Notes under the pieces: model-generated
Told to the model about the DNA's origin: nothing
The model's database searches: none
What the model saw: the letters and a program-made list of their open reading frames with translations, nothing else
Translations under genes and position numbers: made by a program
From: Escherichia phage ECO103 4-12-1
DNA length: 64,000 bases
Reading direction: 5' to 3' (one strand)
Sequence record: OR844650
Part shown: positions 21,065 to 28,774 of the stretch, one piece after another
Position numbering within the stretch: the first letter of the stretch is position 1
Layout of the letters: each line of letters begins with the position of its first letter

Positions 21065-21574
21065 TTAACCACCATACTTTGACTTGTATGTTTCAAGTGA
21101 TAAAGATATACGATTTTGCTTTTTAATTCTTTCATCAATATCCTTTGAATTCTTCACACTTCGGTATACGTCAGCTAATAAATTATAATCTTCTTTATTT
21201 GAGCTATGCTGTGCCCAACCTATCTCTGTTTTAATACGAACATTTGCTTTATTTGACGAGTAAAAGAAACTGAATCCATTGGACCCATCAAAAATATCAA
21301 AAGTATCTACCCAATCACCATAAGGAAAGCTCATTGGAACTGACTCATGGTCTATTGTGATATCCGATAAATTTTTTGAACAGTACTTCGCAAAGTGATA
21401 AACGATTGGATCGCATTTTGATAATTCGTATTTGTATTCAATGATAGTTTTTCTATTAGCATCATTGATAGCATATTCTTTTATCAATGGACTTTTTTTG
21501 ATGATAAGAGTCCATAGAAACGATTCTAATCCGGTTTCATCAACTTTTTGTTTCTTTTTGAAAAATGAAATCAT
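21065..21574 (-). CDS. hypothetical protein, member of 3-gene paralog set
   Basis: shares N-terminal pattern (..DxxRKxxIExKYxLSK..) with 21571..22092 and 22099..22665. Confidence 0.5.
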   Translation of the reverse strand: MISFFKKKQKVDETGLESFLWTLIIKKSPLIKEYAINDANRKTIIEYKYELSKCDPIVYHFAKYCSKNLSDITIDHESVPMSFPYGDWVDTFDIFDGSNGFSFFYSSNKANVRIKTEIGWAQHSSNKEDYNLLADVYRSVKNSKDIDERIKKQNRISLSLETYKSKYGG

Positions 21575-22092
21575 TTATATAAACCCTTAATTTTCTGTCT
21601 ATTATGTATATCATTTTGCTGGATTTTCAATTTAGTAAGGTTGTTTCTTACACCTTCAACTCCACGCATTATTTGTAACATAATTAGTGATTCGTCATAT
21701 GTTAGGACATTGCTATTATTATCGATATATACTTTCACTCCACTTTCAAGATAATCATTTTCTTTGGAGTTAAAGTTTCTAATAACAAACTTAACGCCAT
21801 TTGATGCATCACTGAAAACATATCGTTCCGCACCGTAGAATGTTTTTCCACGAAATAAACCGCCGTCTTCCCACTTCCAACGACTAGATTCATAATCATT
21901 AACGTAATCAATGATTAAAGAAAGTAAAGGGTGTTTGCTCAATTTATATTTTGCATCTAACAGGATACGTCTATCATTATCTGTGGTGATAATATCCTTT
22001 AGTGAGTAGCTTTTAGATATAATTTTAAAGATAATTTCATGCCAAATTAAAGTACTGTTTTGTTTTCCAACTGATCCAAAAAACATATCCAT
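21571..22092 (-). CDS. hypothetical protein, member of 3-gene paralog set
   Basis: TDNDRRILLDAKYKLSK block. Confidence 0.5.
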   Translation of the reverse strand: MDMFFGSVGKQNSTLIWHEIIFKIISKSYSLKDIITTDNDRRILLDAKYKLSKHPLLSLIIDYVNDYESSRWKWEDGGLFRGKTFYGAERYVFSDASNGVKFVIRNFNSKENDYLESGVKVYIDNNSNVLTYDESLIMLQIMRGVEGVRNNLTKLKIQQNDIHNRQKIKGLYK

Positions 22093-22098
22093 TCCTCA

Positions 22099-25478: not shown

Positions 25479-26066
25479 TTACCAACCAATTGTACCAGTT
25501 TCTGATGGTTTTCCAGTACTGACTGGGAATGAAGAACCTTTTTGTGTAACACTAGGTCTATATGTACTAAATCTGGATACTTTATTAATGTTTATATTTG
25601 TAATACCACTTGTACCAACGGTCAGTGTTCCAATAAACATTATAATTTCAGATTCTTGTATTTGTGTTGGTGATATTTTATAAATTGGTTCACCGAGAAC
25701 TAACGTTGCATATACGTATTGTGTTTGTGTTCCAGATGAAACAGTTGAAGCAAAAATAGAAACTGCTGGAAATTTATAAAGATAACCACCAATAAATGAT
25801 GGTATCTGTCTATTAAATGTAAGACTATAGCCTGATGAAGTAATATTTAGACTAGCGTCATCATACAATTCTCCGTATTGTGTAAGTGGTAATCCATTGA
25901 CAATAAAGTTAACTTCATCTTTGGTAATAGAGGGGAATGTACATTCCCCATTTGAATTTGTTGGGTAATAAGTCATATTATTACCTAATACACCAAGACC
26001 AGTACTTTTACCCTGAACTGTAACTTGTTGCATTGCCTTAAGGTCTGCTCTTATTTTATATGCCAT
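25479..26066 (-). CDS. short tail-fibre-like protein (mini paralog)
   Basis: 195 aa carrying only the conserved C-terminal module (..GTSGITNININKVSRFSTYRPS..TGTIGW). Confidence 0.5.
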   Translation of the reverse strand: MAYKIRADLKAMQQVTVQGKSTGLGVLGNNMTYYPTNSNGECTFPSITKDEVNFIVNGLPLTQYGELYDDASLNITSSGYSLTFNRQIPSFIGGYLYKFPAVSIFASTVSSGTQTQYVYATLVLGEPIYKISPTQIQESEIIMFIGTLTVGTSGITNININKVSRFSTYRPSVTQKGSSFPVSTGKPSETGTIGW

Positions 26067-26077
26067 TATGTAATCCT

Positions 26078-28774
26078 TTACCAGTTTATGGTTCCTGTTT
26101 GTGATGGTAGACCGTAGCTAACTGGGAACGATGAACCTGCTGATTCAAGTGAAGCACCAAATATATCTAAACGGGAACGTTTTTGTATATTAATTGTTTC
26201 GATTTGAATTGCATTAGTTTGAATTGTACCTATCCAAAAAATATTATATGCAGTTGTCCCTGTTTCAGAAATAACATCAGTAGTTATGTAATAGTTTGCC
26301 AATCCTTGTTCCAATTTAACATATACATAAAATGTTGTATTTGCTGGATTAGACTTAATAGTTCTCAAATCAATATTTGAAACTGGTAGTGAAAATGACT
26401 TACCTGAAAGAATAACTGGTGTTTCCTCTGTAAAATATACAATAAACCCTTGAGCAACGTCCTGGGATACTACGTTAATTGGGCTACCTTGTGCAGTCCA
26501 GTTATTATAGTCTGCAATCGTTGTTCCATATTTTTTGAATGTCATTTTATTTGAGTAATCCATTGGTTCAAAAATTCCAAAACCAATACCAGGTAATGCT
26601 GCTGGTTGACTTCCTTGTTCATAACTGGCATGAGATCCAGTAATTATAAAACTTGTAAATTGTGCAGTTGATTTAGTTACATATGCTCTAAATTGATGAG
26701 TTGCAGTATTACCTATTGTTGGATGTGATAATGGGTCAGAACCACCAATGAAGTAGAATGAACCACCATCATATATGGTCAAACCAACAGAAGAAGATGC
26801 AATCGAACCATTCCCAGTTGGTGTAAAGTTATCACCATACGTATTCTCAAGTACTAAACGCTTAAATGTAATAGATGTAATATTACCAACTCTAGTATTG
26901 ACATTAACTTCAGCAATTCTAATATAGTTTCTATAATCATTAGTAATTGTACTCAACATAACAAAAGCTGGAATGTCTGTTTGTTGTGGAACAAATAGTG
27001 TCATATCACGGTATGCTTGTGCTGATAAATTCCAGTCACTTAGAACTTTGGCATATTCAGTATTTCTAAAATTGTCCAGTACTGATTGTGTAACGCTTAT
27101 AATTCCTGTGCCATTTAAGTTTTTATCATAGGATAATGATTGTGAATAACGTTGCCCAACCATAAAAATACCACCATTGGTTGTGACAGTTGACCCAGAA
27201 ATACTACTAATAAAAATTCTATTATTTGCATTATCATCAACATTAGCACGTTCAACTGTAGGTTCATAACCTTGTATTGTTCCTAAAGATAATGATTTAA
27301 ATGTAAAATTAGGAGTACTTTTATGAACTGCATATGATGGTCTAAATCCACCACTACCTGATGCACGTGAATATTGTTTAGTACTGTTATCTGGTAGTAA
27401 TTCTACACCATTAATAAATGAACCAACCGCTGAACCAAAAGACGGGCGAACTATACCACCTTTGAAGTCAGTAGAAAGTACAGCACGGACATTCAGCATA
27501 CTATAAACTATTTGAATAGGAAACTTAGCTTTTTGCATAAGTAATGGTTCTGCTAAGTTTGGACATGTAGTACAAAAAGCTTCACCAGAATTCAAATAAA
27601 AATATGAACTATAAATGTTTCTTGCATTTGCATGGTTATACAATGGATCGTTATTTAAAACGTTACCAGTAGGAACTAATGCCGAACCAGTATTAGTTAT
27701 AACTAATGGTGCTTGATATGAACCAATATCGTTACCCGCATCTAATGTACATTGTTTAGTACTCATATTGAACACAAAACTGTAACTATGCTGTGGACGT
27801 GTATTATATGTTGCCATTGTAAACCAAGCGTCCCCGTTCATTCTAAAGCGGAAATTCTGCGTTCCTGGCTGCTGTGCAACATATAAATCAATTGATGTCA
27901 TGTAAATCCCAATACCACGTAGATTTTGTGGGACATAAGCATAAGGTTTATCAGCAATATTTGTTGATATTACCTGATTAGTAATAACCATATTATTTTG
28001 TGCAGAATATGTCGTGTTATAAAATGTTTTAGTAGTCCATCCAGTAATTCGAGTTGCAGTATAAGTACCATTGCTTATATTATAAACAACTTTAACAACA
28101 ACTAATTGTAGTTGGTTATTTTCATTAAGTACGTTAAAAACATATATAGAACCATCTTCTGCCATCATAGCATATTCAATACCACCTTCAGGTGATATAT
28201 CTGCTTGGTTAACGAAAAAACCAGTATGCAATTTATCATCTAATGTACCATTGGTAATTGATATGAACAAACCATTAGTACTGTTAGAAGTATCAATATA
28301 TCTACCGAGTAAAATATTTGGATCAGTATTGTATAAACCAATCGCAACTCTATTTGAACCAAAAAACCCAGGCTTGTATTGACGACTGGTGTTAATTGTA
28401 CGGCTCATGTCATCAACTGATAATGCGTTAGCCAAATATGAATAAAATAATCCCTCAACACTACCGTTTGTCCCACTACGTAAAAGTACTAGTGTACCAT
28501 CGTTTTCTAATAAAATTTTATTTCTACGTTGTGACTGGTTTTCTGATGCACCATTGAAATCCCCAGAAACACCCGCAGGTAGATAGTTTTGTGAACCATA
28601 ATGGGAGATTGGCATCATACTTACTATATCTAGTACTTCATCTCTGGAATAAGTATCTAATTCCAAGTTACCGTTGGAATCAAAAACTTGTTCATTTATT
28701 CCTTGAATTGTTCTTTTACCATTAACTGTCACATTATGTGTGACATCTAAGCCACCATATATTTTCTTTGACAT
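26078..28774 (-). CDS. tail fibre protein (large, paralog A)
   Basis: 898 aa; N-terminal LENDGTLVLLRSGTNGS and C-terminal VVSQDVAQGF..SNPANTTFY blocks shared with 22733..25462. Confidence 0.6.
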   Translation of the reverse strand: MSKKIYGGLDVTHNVTVNGKRTIQGINEQVFDSNGNLELDTYSRDEVLDIVSMMPISHYGSQNYLPAGVSGDFNGASENQSQRRNKILLENDGTLVLLRSGTNGSVEGLFYSYLANALSVDDMSRTINTSRQYKPGFFGSNRVAIGLYNTDPNILLGRYIDTSNSTNGLFISITNGTLDDKLHTGFFVNQADISPEGGIEYAMMAEDGSIYVFNVLNENNQLQLVVVKVVYNISNGTYTATRITGWTTKTFYNTTYSAQNNMVITNQVISTNIADKPYAYVPQNLRGIGIYMTSIDLYVAQQPGTQNFRFRMNGDAWFTMATYNTRPQHSYSFVFNMSTKQCTLDAGNDIGSYQAPLVITNTGSALVPTGNVLNNDPLYNHANARNIYSSYFYLNSGEAFCTTCPNLAEPLLMQKAKFPIQIVYSMLNVRAVLSTDFKGGIVRPSFGSAVGSFINGVELLPDNSTKQYSRASGSGGFRPSYAVHKSTPNFTFKSLSLGTIQGYEPTVERANVDDNANNRIFISSISGSTVTTNGGIFMVGQRYSQSLSYDKNLNGTGIISVTQSVLDNFRNTEYAKVLSDWNLSAQAYRDMTLFVPQQTDIPAFVMLSTITNDYRNYIRIAEVNVNTRVGNITSITFKRLVLENTYGDNFTPTGNGSIASSSVGLTIYDGGSFYFIGGSDPLSHPTIGNTATHQFRAYVTKSTAQFTSFIITGSHASYEQGSQPAALPGIGFGIFEPMDYSNKMTFKKYGTTIADYNNWTAQGSPINVVSQDVAQGFIVYFTEETPVILSGKSFSLPVSNIDLRTIKSNPANTTFYVYVKLEQGLANYYITTDVISETGTTAYNIFWIGTIQTNAIQIETINIQKRSRLDIFGASLESAGSSFPVSYGLPSQTGTINW

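Follow-up and report, generated by a model that had tools for sequence, protein, structure and literature searches.

What is encoded by the six genes of unassigned function that lie downstream of nrdD-nrdG in Escherichia phage ECO103 4-12-1, and do they form a single receptor-binding cassette? We analyzed a 64,000-nucleotide stretch of this genome (sequence record OR844650; hereafter, the window), which belongs to an Asteriusvirus jumbo coliphage with 99.7% DNA identity to slurp01/PBECO4; in Asteriusvirus records, every gene of the locus is labeled “hypothetical.” An earlier note made from the sequence alone had placed six open reading frames here, and all six were confirmed, on the minus strand and with unchanged boundaries. 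We call the three genes closest to nrdG A, S and B, and the three smaller genes after them p1, p2 and p3. The features of the locus are:

28829..28847, minus: intrinsic terminator after nrdG, closing the upstream unit (scan: 8-bp stem, T-run; G17 annotation)
28809..28816, minus: TATAAATA, T4-late-type promoter motif, 34 nt 5' of the A ATG
26078..28774, minus: A, 898 aa, phrog_3573 (ORF; AF2 model; phAPEC6 ortholog in virions); N-module ~1-65, predicted beta-propeller body ~85-770, C-module 771-898 (nt 26081-26464)
25479..26066, minus: S, 195 aa, body-less paralog, phrog_26864 (similarity to A and B); N-module 1-~70 (nt 25857-26066) joined directly to C-module 73-195 (nt 25482-25850)
22733..25462, minus: B, 909 aa, paralog of A, phrog_3573, with the same three-part layout as A; C-module nt 22736-23116
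22705..22728, minus: intrinsic terminator closing the A-S-B unit (scan: 10-bp stem; G17 annotation)
22688..22716, minus: sigma70-type promoter TTGACG-17-TATAAT (11/12 consensus positions)
22099..22665, minus: p1, 188 aa, small paralog family, phrog_18641
21571..22092, minus: p2, 173 aa, small paralog family, phrog_18641
21065..21574, minus: p3, 169 aa, distant member of the small paralog family, phrog_7868 (PHROG cross-hits, hhalign)
20661-21062, minus: q133 (context), translationally coupled with p3
19432-20664, minus: RlaP-type nucleotidyltransferase (NTase; context; Pfam RlaP E=6e-16), coupled and in the same unit as p3

Although a GTG at 25552 would lengthen the B frame, translation probably begins at the ATG at 25462: AAGGAAAAG stands before it, orthologs keep the N-terminus MSSKR.IG, and G17 annotates the 909-aa start.

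A and B are homologous throughout, and S retains only their terminal modules

A and B are homologous over their full length (28-29% identity, BLASTP E=2e-63), with identity by A region of 27% (residues 1-52), 50% (53-110), 24% (111-770), 47% (771-873) and 40% (874-898). The shared ends described in the earlier note are real, since an entropy of 3.8-4.0 bits in the N- and C-modules rules out a low-complexity artifact. The centers, which the same note had set apart as different, are diverged rather than unrelated (local score 243 versus 53 +/- 8.7 in 200 shuffles, z=21.8), with one fold throughout, and DGTLVLLRSGTNGS, proposed as a shared N-terminal motif, sits at the start of the body (A residues 92-105) and is missing from S. 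Full-length members consist of an N-module of ~65 aa, a propeller body of ~690 aa and a C-module of ~125 aa that ends in the conserved tail GSSFPVS.G.PS.TGT..W. S had been read as terminal modules only, and rightly: all that it retains of an A/B-type protein is ~65 residues from the start and ~125 from the end, with a C-module 36% and 43% identical to those of A and B (E=9e-17 and 6e-24) and an N-module (~60 aa) 32-34% identical to theirs (E=4e-7 and 1e-3).

The phrog_3573 profile matches A (E=3.7e-274) and B (E=6.3e-267), and S matches phrog_26864 (E=4.4e-115) as well as the C-terminal part of phrog_3573 (8e-33). A C-module profile matched 541 cluster representatives at E<=1e-3; three copies lie within the window, and close relatives carry the module at three places per genome. 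Searches of Pfam and NCBIfam with A and B gave no hit, and so far phrog_3573 and phrog_26864 make up an uncharacterized jumbo-phage virion family without a Pfam family or solved structure.

The body of A is predicted to be a beta-propeller

The AF2 model of A is all-beta (pLDDT 86.6, pTM 0.81), with residues 1-65 and 874-898 unstructured in this monomer. Propeller folds were the sole matches when the model was used for fold searches, with no beta-helix fold among them. With regard to a possible glycoside hydrolase or sialidase propeller enzyme, the resemblance to sialidases, GH43, GH130 and fucose lectins is generic only; residues R99, H183 and R509 are invariant in the A/B body. Staphylococcus phage phi11 Gp45 (PDB 5EFV) and phi92 endosialidase (4HIZ) were among the matches (rank 18 in one search, rank 15 in another), and the phiKZ gp131 propeller (PDB 4GBF) was not among the top ones. 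We rejected a tailspike or capsule depolymerase of the RaK2 gp526-534 type as a candidate identity for A and B, as the model is propeller-rich and has no beta-helix, and a comparison of the A/B profile with four RaK2 cluster proteins (ORF525w, 526w, 533 and 534) found nothing.

A, S and B lie in the slot of the RaK2 fibers and have relatives in virions

The A-S-B triplet directly follows nrdD-nrdG. The corresponding order in RaK2 is nrdD-nrdG, ORF525-534, p-family ORFs, a q133 ortholog and the NTase, and gp526-534 have been shown experimentally to be part of the long tail fibers (PMC10253068). Another connection to fibers is provided by EL gp114 and gp115 and Ea35-70 gp019, which are assigned to phrog_3573 like A and B and in which an A-like unit is preceded by an N-domain with homology to residues 11-238 of phiKZ gp131 (E=3e-13; gp131 identity confirmed against PDB 4GBF); in EL gp115, the A-like unit begins at residue ~273, past the gp131-like domain. 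Domains of this type dock phiKZ fibers to the baseplate (PMC13250141). A and B are tied to phiKZ fibers via these fusions only: they start with a different 50-65-aa module in place of the gp131-type N-domain and have no C-terminal seven-bladed propeller homologous to 4GBF. Among short family members, P0122 joins a tail-fiber-type N-terminus (phrog_8147, E=1e-11) to the C-module, and P0109 has, by eye, a similar NPHG-containing N-terminus, with no tail-fiber family hit.

Members of the family have been detected by mass spectrometry (MS). The A ortholog of phAPEC6, gp323c, was found in purified virions (4 peptides, 5.6% coverage), the GAP32 homologs of CBB_148 and CBB_149 (S and B lineages) were MS-positive in virions (CBB supplement S5), and RAY gp18 and Deimos-Minion gp19 were found in lysates; CBB_147-149 were not detected in CBB virions. 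The visible baseplate fibers of phAPEC6 were ascribed by its authors to other genes (gp248, gp256 and gp314).

A-S-B has the signals of a late-type transcription unit

Read 5' to 3', the unit comprises a terminator, TATAAATA, A, 11 nt, S, 16 nt, B and a second terminator. TATAAATA is present in only 2 copies in the 64 kb, versus 13 expected, and one of them is 5' of A; the triplet of G17, fEgEco12, ph0011, A4, fENko-Kae01, pEa_SNUABM_50 and CBB has ATAAATAC at the same place before its first gene. The hairpin after nrdG (AAGCACCC...GGGTGCTTTTTT) is conserved in eight phages, the terminator after B is conserved across genera, and the whole signal layout is kept in eight phages from four or more genera. 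ATAAATA has been described before structural genes of CBB, whose authors also report a gp55-like sigma factor, and of GAP32. Both marks of a late structural gene in Rak2-like phages, a T4-late-like ATAAATA and detection of family members in virions by MS, are found for this triplet. These data suggest that A-S-B is one late-type transcription unit, its timing being read from the motifs.

The triplet is exchanged as a block and has lost bodies repeatedly

Between the window and ph0011, A, S and B are 54, 44 and 51% identical and the flanks 81-98%, while between ph0011 and A4 they are 89, 90 and 94% identical with a dS of 0.15-0.38, versus 1.4-1.5 in the flanks. The triplet is thus swapped between phages as a single block. 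Co-variation of A, S and B is also expected from block inheritance alone. The bodies are more diverged than the termini in comparisons of the window with ph0011, A4 and fENko-Kae01; the exception is fEgEco12 (77% identity over A 1-65 versus 84-87% in the body). The cassette is found unchanged in phages whose isolation hosts were E. coli O157, APEC and Salmonella Typhimurium. The alternative host ranges raised in the earlier note would thus not come from a simple switch.

The three lineages are orthologous across genera, with A corresponding to CBB_147, S to CBB_148 and B to CBB_149. The orthologs of B are CBB_149 (35%) and pEa50_141 (39%), and the positional orthologs of S are full-length middle paralogs, CBB_148 and pEa50_140 (913-916 aa). 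The lengths of the triplet products (aa, in gene order) are:

CBB: 902 / 916 / 916
pEa_SNUABM_50: 899 / 913 / 920
Window and close relatives: 898 / 195 / 909
XaC1: 190 / 194 / 911
Ea35-70: 420 / 1163 / 1150

XaC1, with its short-short-long arrangement, contains a second, independent short form, in the A lineage, and body loss has thus happened repeatedly. Short forms account for about a quarter of the best 150 C-module matches, and many are from metagenomes.

The small paralogs appear to form a separate early-type unit

p1 and p2 are 30% identical (E~1e-12), and their group matches that of p3 (hhalign probability 97.8%, E=1e-12, 138 columns; PHROGs cross-hit). The proposed paralogy of the three therefore stands, with homology that extends over nearly the whole length and not just the N-terminal block to which it had been assigned. 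In the p2 model, a helical N-part and a small beta-sheet are accompanied by a long helix at the C-terminus. The -35 of the sigma70-type promoter lies inside the hairpin of the terminator after B, and the same composite occurs in G17, fEgEco12, ph0011, A4 and fENko-Kae01 and at CBB_150. This promoter probably drives p1-p2-p3-q133-NTase as an early-type unit apart from A-S-B (spacings of 2 nt for p3/q133 and -4 nt for q133/NTase).

The p-family lies directly 3' of the triplet in Asteriusvirus, fENko-Kae01, Eneladusvirus and CBB, and the window has three p genes, as it has three triplet genes. Both observations would fit a role for p1-p3 as fiber-specific chaperones or adhesins that pair with A, S and B, a possibility raised in the earlier note, yet we consider that role very improbable. 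The conserved terminator cuts p1-p3 off from B, they have their own promoter, and the two sets assort independently: p1-p3 are 87-96% identical between the window and ph0011, where A-S-B is at 44-54%, and conversely 35-42% between ph0011 and A4, where A-S-B is at 89-94%. Moreover, the p-family also follows the unrelated depolymerase fibers of RaK2 and is absent beside the XaC1 triplet, its copy number varies (four in CBB, two in RaK2), family and fold comparisons of p1-p3 gave no chaperone or adhesin match, and the phAPEC6 virion list contains no p-family ortholog (gp319c-321c). p1-p3 instead appear to be a separate early-type unit encoding a fast-evolving paralog family.

A-S-B probably encodes a host-recognition module

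We consider it probable that A, S and B are late-transcribed, paralogous virion proteins of the tail-fiber/receptor-binding class, with a variable propeller body and with S as a body-less assembly subunit. Detection of the A ortholog in virions, the EL and Ea35-70 fusions, synteny with RaK2 and block replacement all bear out the suggestion of a diversified cassette; what survives of the receptor-binding proposal is a set of exchangeable, fast-diverging late virion paralogs, shorn of its matched chaperones or adhesins. Because these are virion proteins that are swapped as a block and sit in the slot of a related phage's proven fibers, A-S-B is probably an unannotated host-recognition module. 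The termini would be the constant, assembly-related parts and the propeller body the variable and presumably ligand-binding part, S would be a selected subunit that keeps the assembly modules only, and the triplet would fill the host-recognition slot of Rak2-like genomes, its products presumably binding host surface structures.

That A and B are instead structural or decorative proteins of the tail or baseplate, or anchors of “hairs,” and bind no receptor, seems improbable to us. On that view, they would have diverged under relaxed constraint or by co-evolving with other parts of the virion, and this would suit the low abundance of A in MS, the occurrence of the same cassette in phages of different host genera, the large beta-rich scaffold proteins of the phiKZ outer baseplate, and the unexplained hairy appendages on the tail and capsid of phAPEC6 and CBB. 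However, the locus is syntenic with the verified adsorption cluster of RaK2, the body is a predicted propeller as in known receptor-binding and glycan-binding proteins, and block replacement at low dS between diverged genomes is typical of host-recognition genes; GAP32, hairless by the CBB authors' argument, keeps the triplet. S, for its part, is extremely improbable as a functionless, decaying remnant of an internal deletion, even though it is the positional ortholog of a 913-916-aa gene minus its center and is unannotated in the phAPEC6 record: its frame is intact, with 40-56% identity in several other genera, its dN/dS is 0.20-0.28, and short forms arose independently in the XaC1 A lineage and abound in metagenomes. 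S is thus functional and under purifying selection.

How the three proteins are arranged is a further question. By analogy with phiKZ gp131/133/134/135, A, S and B may co-assemble via their shared termini into one hetero-oligomeric fiber, in which case the number of propeller bodies in a unit would be 3, 2 or 1, depending on the lineage. A rather unlikely arrangement is that each is homo-oligomeric at a different virion site and that the termini are alike because all three dock to the same partner, with S perhaps a plug or adaptor where other lineages have a propeller protein. Stable orthology of three lineages across genera would agree with three distinct roles or sites, and the conservation of both termini despite their lack of structure in the monomer model would agree with docking onto another virion protein, but the number three is kept even after body loss in one or two members, the genes are closely spaced (gaps of 11 and 16 nt), and phiKZ fiber paralogs that share a terminal region co-assemble (PMC13250141). 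Our tentative extension of the hetero-oligomeric fiber, possible although doubtful, is an obligate 1:1:1 fiber whose receptor-binding valency is tuned by body deletion, combined with a host-interaction role for the p-family. A fiber would carry three bodies in CBB and in Eneladusvirus, two in Asteriusvirus and one in XaC1, bodies having been deleted repeatedly while the assembly modules were kept, and the fast-evolving p-family could serve early host interaction (e.g., anti-defense) and have an XRCC4-like head-and-stalk shape. If true, A-S-B would be a receptor-binding complex of variable valency, and no such design principle has been described for phage fibers.

Comparison with known systems

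The p genes resemble tail-fiber chaperones (T4 gp38/gp57A and the Tfa family) in being small and directly 3' of fiber genes, and differ in having no sequence or fold match to them, a separate early-type unit and no co-variation with the fiber genes. In the phage tail proteins phi11 Gp45 and phi92 endosialidase, a beta-propeller lies at the distal end and faces the ligand. The adsorption complex gp526-gp534 of RaK2/phiK64-1 (Noreika et al. 2023, PMC10253068) shares its genomic slot with A-S-B and is likewise a multi-gene, variable cluster of virion proteins, with host recognition established for RaK2. Unlike A-S-B, it is of the tailspike/depolymerase type and comprises nine to ten genes on both strands that build branched long fibers. 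In phiKZ, the shorter paralogs co-assemble with the propeller-bearing gp131 at the baseplate periphery; for the A-S-B family, the MS data document presence in virions. Like A-S-B, phiKZ gp131, gp133, gp134 and gp135 (PMC13250141) are tandem paralogs with a common terminal assembly region and a propeller in only some of them.

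Three paralogous proteins share their terminal modules

All six open reading frames of the earlier note exist: a triplet of paralogs, A, S and B in gene order, and three small proteins encoded past B (p1, p2 and p3). The minus strand holds all genes of the locus, whose main features are as follows.

29634-31502, minus strand: nrdD, upstream of the triplet
Between nrdD and nrdG, minus strand: DUF4326 gene, upstream of the triplet
28851-29321, minus strand: nrdG, upstream of the triplet
28847-28829, minus strand: intrinsic terminator after nrdG
28816-28809, minus strand: TATAAATA, upstream of A
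26078-28774, minus strand: A, 898 aa
25479-26066, minus strand: S, 195 aa
22733-25462, minus strand: B, 909 aa
22728-22705, minus strand: second terminator, after B
22716-22688, minus strand: sigma70-type promoter TTGACG-17-TATAAT, its -35 box within the hairpin of the terminator after B
Downstream of p1-p3, minus strand: 133-aa ORF (q133) and RlaP-type nucleotidyltransferase gene

A and B align across their full length with 28% identity (E=2e-63), and identity along A is 50% at residues 53-110, 24% at 111-770 and 47% at 771-873. The central region by itself exceeds shuffled sequences by 21.8 sd in alignment score. A and B thus have the same architecture from end to end, conserved more strongly at the termini; the earlier reading of shared termini around different centres needs correcting, as the centres are diverged but related. 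We call the three parts the N-module, the body (a predicted beta-propeller) and the C-module. S retains only the terminal modules, as had been proposed, and matches A and B over their first ~60 and final ~125 residues, but DGTLVLLRSGTNGS, which had been quoted as belonging to the shared N-terminal module, opens the body and does not occur in S. The modules are not low-complexity, so the shared blocks are not artefacts of composition.

Of 1.84 billion cluster representatives, 541 matched a profile of the C-module (E<=1e-3), nearly always at the very C-terminal end; clustered at 50% identity, the family numbers 541 clusters or more. A, S and B have no Pfam or NCBIfam family match, the PHROGs that they match (3573, 7449 and 26864) are all of unknown function, and Pfam, NCBIfam and PHROG functional categories were uninformative for all six proteins. 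The PDB yielded no sequence match to A, to S, to EL gp115 or to profiles of A/B and of the C-module, and we found no literature on cryo-EM tail structures of Rak2-like coliphages that resolves A, S or B. A distant homologue of A (26% over residues 36-869) is annotated as hypothetical in the nucleus-forming coliphage Goslar (NC_048170.1, 20542-23010); the family of A is therefore present in both Rak2-like phages and chimalliviruses that share a host species.

Asteriusvirus jumbo coliphages such as slurp01, PBECO4, phAPEC6 and SP27 match the region at 99.3-99.7% identity, and 121Q and G17 at about 95%. The triplet genes and p1-p3 are all labelled "hypothetical protein" in the records of these phages, and the triplet genes are hypothetical in nearly all Asteriusvirus records listed, the exceptions being EJP2 and CMSTMSU, in which the A-type gene is a "minor tail protein". 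The nrdD-nrdG interval differs among relatives (CBB, L002 2410-3174; A4, L012 3938-4300; locus L005, 2864-3226): in CBB it holds a 254-aa structural protein confirmed by mass spectrometry (MS), CBB_144, and in A4, ph0011, fENko-Kae01 and RaK2 a glycyl-radical "spare part" gene (pyruvate formate-lyase-like/vs.6) that the window lacks.

Loss of the body is recurrent and maintained

By position and best similarity, A is the counterpart of CBB_147 and pEa50_139 (46%) and B of CBB_149 and pEa50_141 (35-39%). The counterparts of S are the middle genes CBB_148 and pEa50_140, which are full-length and share with it 45-47% identity in the C-module and 32-40% in the N-module.

Lengths of the triplet proteins (first / middle / last gene, aa)
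CBB and Eneladusvirus: about 900 / 915 / 918
Asteriusvirus, fENko-Kae01, ph0011 and A4: about 898 / 195 / 910
XaC1: 190 / 194 / 911 (the first gene is a short form of the A lineage)
Ea35-70: 420 / 1163 / 1150

S is under purifying selection (dN/dS 0.20 and 0.28), and proteins of 170-251 aa make up about a quarter of the best 150 C-module matches. Together with the triplet lengths, these data indicate that the body was lost, with both termini kept, at least twice, and that the short forms have been maintained. This pattern in the sequences argues for an essential role of the termini that does not depend on the body, assembly or docking being the simplest candidates.

The triplet and the small paralogs appear to belong to different transcription units

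The TATAAATA motif upstream of A is strongly under-represented in the 64 kb (2 copies versus 13 +/- 3.8 expected), and its second copy (43737-43744, plus strand) lies on the strand opposite to every gene examined (9-31.5 kb). The triplet genes are separated by 11 nt (A-S) and 16 nt (S-B). The unit past the sigma70-type promoter contains p1, p2, p3, q133 and the nucleotidyltransferase gene, with spacings of 6, -4, 2 and -4 nt. Both sets of signals occur at the same positions in G17, fEgEco12, ph0011, A4, fENko-Kae01, pEa_SNUABM_50 and CBB, and both terminators are annotated in the G17 record. In CBB and GAP32, an ATAAATA motif is reported to precede structural genes, and a gp55-like sigma factor is also reported (PMC5259590). 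Given these signals, their conservation and the reported motif, A-S-B looks like a late transcription unit and p1-p3 look like part of an early unit read by the host polymerase, with timing judged from motifs in both cases.

Just upstream of the acyl-carrier-protein gene is a sigma70 promoter matching the consensus at 12 of 12 positions (TTGACA-17-TATAAT, 19319-19291, minus strand), followed directly by a terminator-like hairpin (19289-19266, minus strand). This promoter-then-hairpin order is unlike the hairpin-embedded promoter past B; an attenuator and an overlapping terminator of the upstream unit are candidate readings of 19319-19266.

A-S-B is exchanged as a block

The earlier note had raised the possibility of cassette shuffling, and comparison of relatives bears this out for A-S-B.

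Amino acid identity (%) between phages across the locus
Window versus ph0011: nrdD 94, nrdG 81, A 54, S 44, B 51, p1 87, p2 91, p3 96, q133 98, nucleotidyltransferase 96
ph0011 versus A4: A 89, S 90, B 94, p1 37, p2 35, p3 42, nucleotidyltransferase 87

Between ph0011 and A4, synonymous divergence (dS) is 0.15-0.38 for A, S and B versus 1.4-1.5 for nrdD and the nucleotidyltransferase gene, indicating a recent exchange of the whole triplet in one block. In the window/fEgEco12 comparison, p1 (0.07) and p2 (0.20) have the lowest dS, with p3 (0.41) only slightly below nrdD (0.56), and p1-p3 of A4 are replaced relative to ph0011 (37, 35 and 42% identity); by these sequence comparisons, p1-p3 seem to form another mobile block. 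Between the window and ph0011, A4 or fENko-Kae01, divergence is greatest in the propeller bodies and smaller in the termini. The window/fEgEco12 pair departs from this pattern (A residues 1-65, 77%; body, 84-87%). A recombination boundary within the C-module of B, suggested by a blastn HSP, was dropped, as per-domain protein identities show no sharp boundary. At least five or six cassette types exist among close relatives. Phages whose isolation hosts were E. coli O157, APEC and Salmonella Typhimurium carry the window type unaltered, which cautions against a one-to-one link between cassette and host range.

The small paralogs are unlikely to be chaperones or adhesins

That p1-p3 are paralogs, as first noticed, holds: p1 and p2 are 30% identical (E~1e-12), and p3 is a distant member, placed by PHROG cross-matches and hhalign (probability 97.8%, E=1e-12, 138 columns). 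The family comprises 34 clusters confined to Rak2-like phages; RaK2 has two copies, the window three and CBB four, and none adjoins the XaC1 triplet. The suggestion that they are chaperones or adhesins matched to the triplet fares poorly, since p1-p3 have their own early-type promoter, assort independently of A-S-B, also follow the unrelated fibre genes of RaK2 and are absent from the phAPEC6 virion list. A fold search with p2 returned only XRCC4/PAXX/SAS-6-like matches, too weak to assign a function. A fast-evolving, early role in host interaction is our guess.

The neighbouring q133 (20661-21062, phrog_22376) is far better conserved than p1-p3 (98% identical in ph0011, 61% in A4 and 59% in RaK2 ORF003) and is translationally coupled on both sides, to p3 and to the nucleotidyltransferase gene. 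A second variable fibre-gene site lies ~3 kb from the triplet, where a 929-aa "tail fiber" (gp314c in phAPEC6) and a 178-aa partner are inserted in phAPEC6, between the acyl-carrier and nucleotidyltransferase genes (L001 6937-10264), and in A4, just past the nucleotidyltransferase gene (L012 14713-16588). The phAPEC6 proteins are 82% (gp314c, to A4_504) and 55% (partner, to A4_503) identical to those of A4, and the pair is absent from the window (site 19247-19431), G17 and ph0011. We considered gp314c as a fourth paralog and rejected it, as it is unrelated to A and B.

The triplet is probably a host-recognition module

The A orthologue of phAPEC6, gp323c, is one of 62 virion proteins found by MS (4 peptides, 5.6% coverage; PMC7247149). 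B and S are unannotated in the phAPEC6 record (MK817115; L001 13734-17067, corresponding to window 22733-26066), although the two reading frames are unbroken and S shows 100% identity; the published virion proteomics could therefore not have scored either. For the S and B lineages, MS of GAP32 detected its homologues of CBB_148 and CBB_149, according to a supplement to the CBB paper, and Agricanvirus homologues were seen in lysate MS. The CBB homologues of the triplet were not detected by MS of CBB virions; we did not count the "structural protein" label on CBB_148/149 as CBB evidence, since both are absent from Table 4 of that paper and the label derives from GAP32 MS.

Klebsiella phage RaK2 has the order PhoH ... 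nrdD, vs.6, nrdA.1, nrdG, ORF524 and ORF525w-ORF534, continuing past the record end with ORF001, ORF002, ORF003, ORF004 and a nucleotidyltransferase gene. ORF001 and ORF002 belong to the p-family (HMM E=1e-16 and 2e-15), and ORF003 is the 59% identical counterpart of q133. RaK2 gp526-gp534 have been shown experimentally to be part of the long tail fibres, seven being depolymerases (PMC10253068). A-S-B thus occupies the slot of a relative's host-recognition genes, and the nrdG-proximal triplet is probably a host-recognition module.

The genes themselves are not new, as the CBB_147-149 paralogy appears in a CBB paper supplement and the family exists as unnamed PHROGs. What is new is the predicted fold, the three-part architecture with recurrent body-less paralogs, the late-unit/early-unit boundaries and block exchange, and the synteny-based assignment to a host-recognition slot. 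Asteriusvirus jumbo phages, among them PBECO4, 121Q, phAPEC6, fEgEco12 and JP4, are under study as candidates for phage therapy, and the cassette boundaries and naturally swapped types are concrete targets for host-range engineering. The triplet assignment likewise offers targets when MS and cryo-EM datasets already collected are analysed again. The family lacks a Pfam entry and a solved structure and links Rak2-like phages with chimalliviruses. The body-less paralogs raise a testable question about multi-paralog fibre assembly, and the negative result on p1-p3 averts a wrong "chaperone" annotation.

Comparison with known fibre systems

The closest positional analogue of the triplet is the RaK2 gp526-534 cluster, whose proteins lack homology to A and B; the A/B profile matched none of the four scanned (ORF525w, 526w, 533 and 534). 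In function, the triplet is most closely paralleled by the fibre paralogs gp131-135 of phiKZ, in which the gp131-type N-domains of gp131, gp133, gp134 and gp135 form a hetero-hexameric base that docks fibres to the outer baseplate (PMC13250141). An A-like unit that starts at an LP(I/L)SxYG motif and takes in the body and the C-module occurs in EL gp114/gp115 and Ea35-70 gp019/gp020, proteins that fall in the PHROG of A and B. Residues 9-261 of EL gp115 are homologous to the phiKZ gp131 N-terminal domain (E=3e-13 versus the orthologue from PA7, itself a match to PDB 4GBF at 2e-280). In P0122, a short form from metagenomes, the C-module directly follows an N-terminus of tail-fibre type (phrog_8147, E=1e-11); a similar N-terminus containing NPHG was seen by eye in P0109, with no tail-fibre family match. 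A, S and B themselves lie outside the gp131 set, as neither the gp131 N-domain nor a 4GBF-type propeller was found in them. On the phiKZ precedent, the three proteins may co-assemble via their shared termini.
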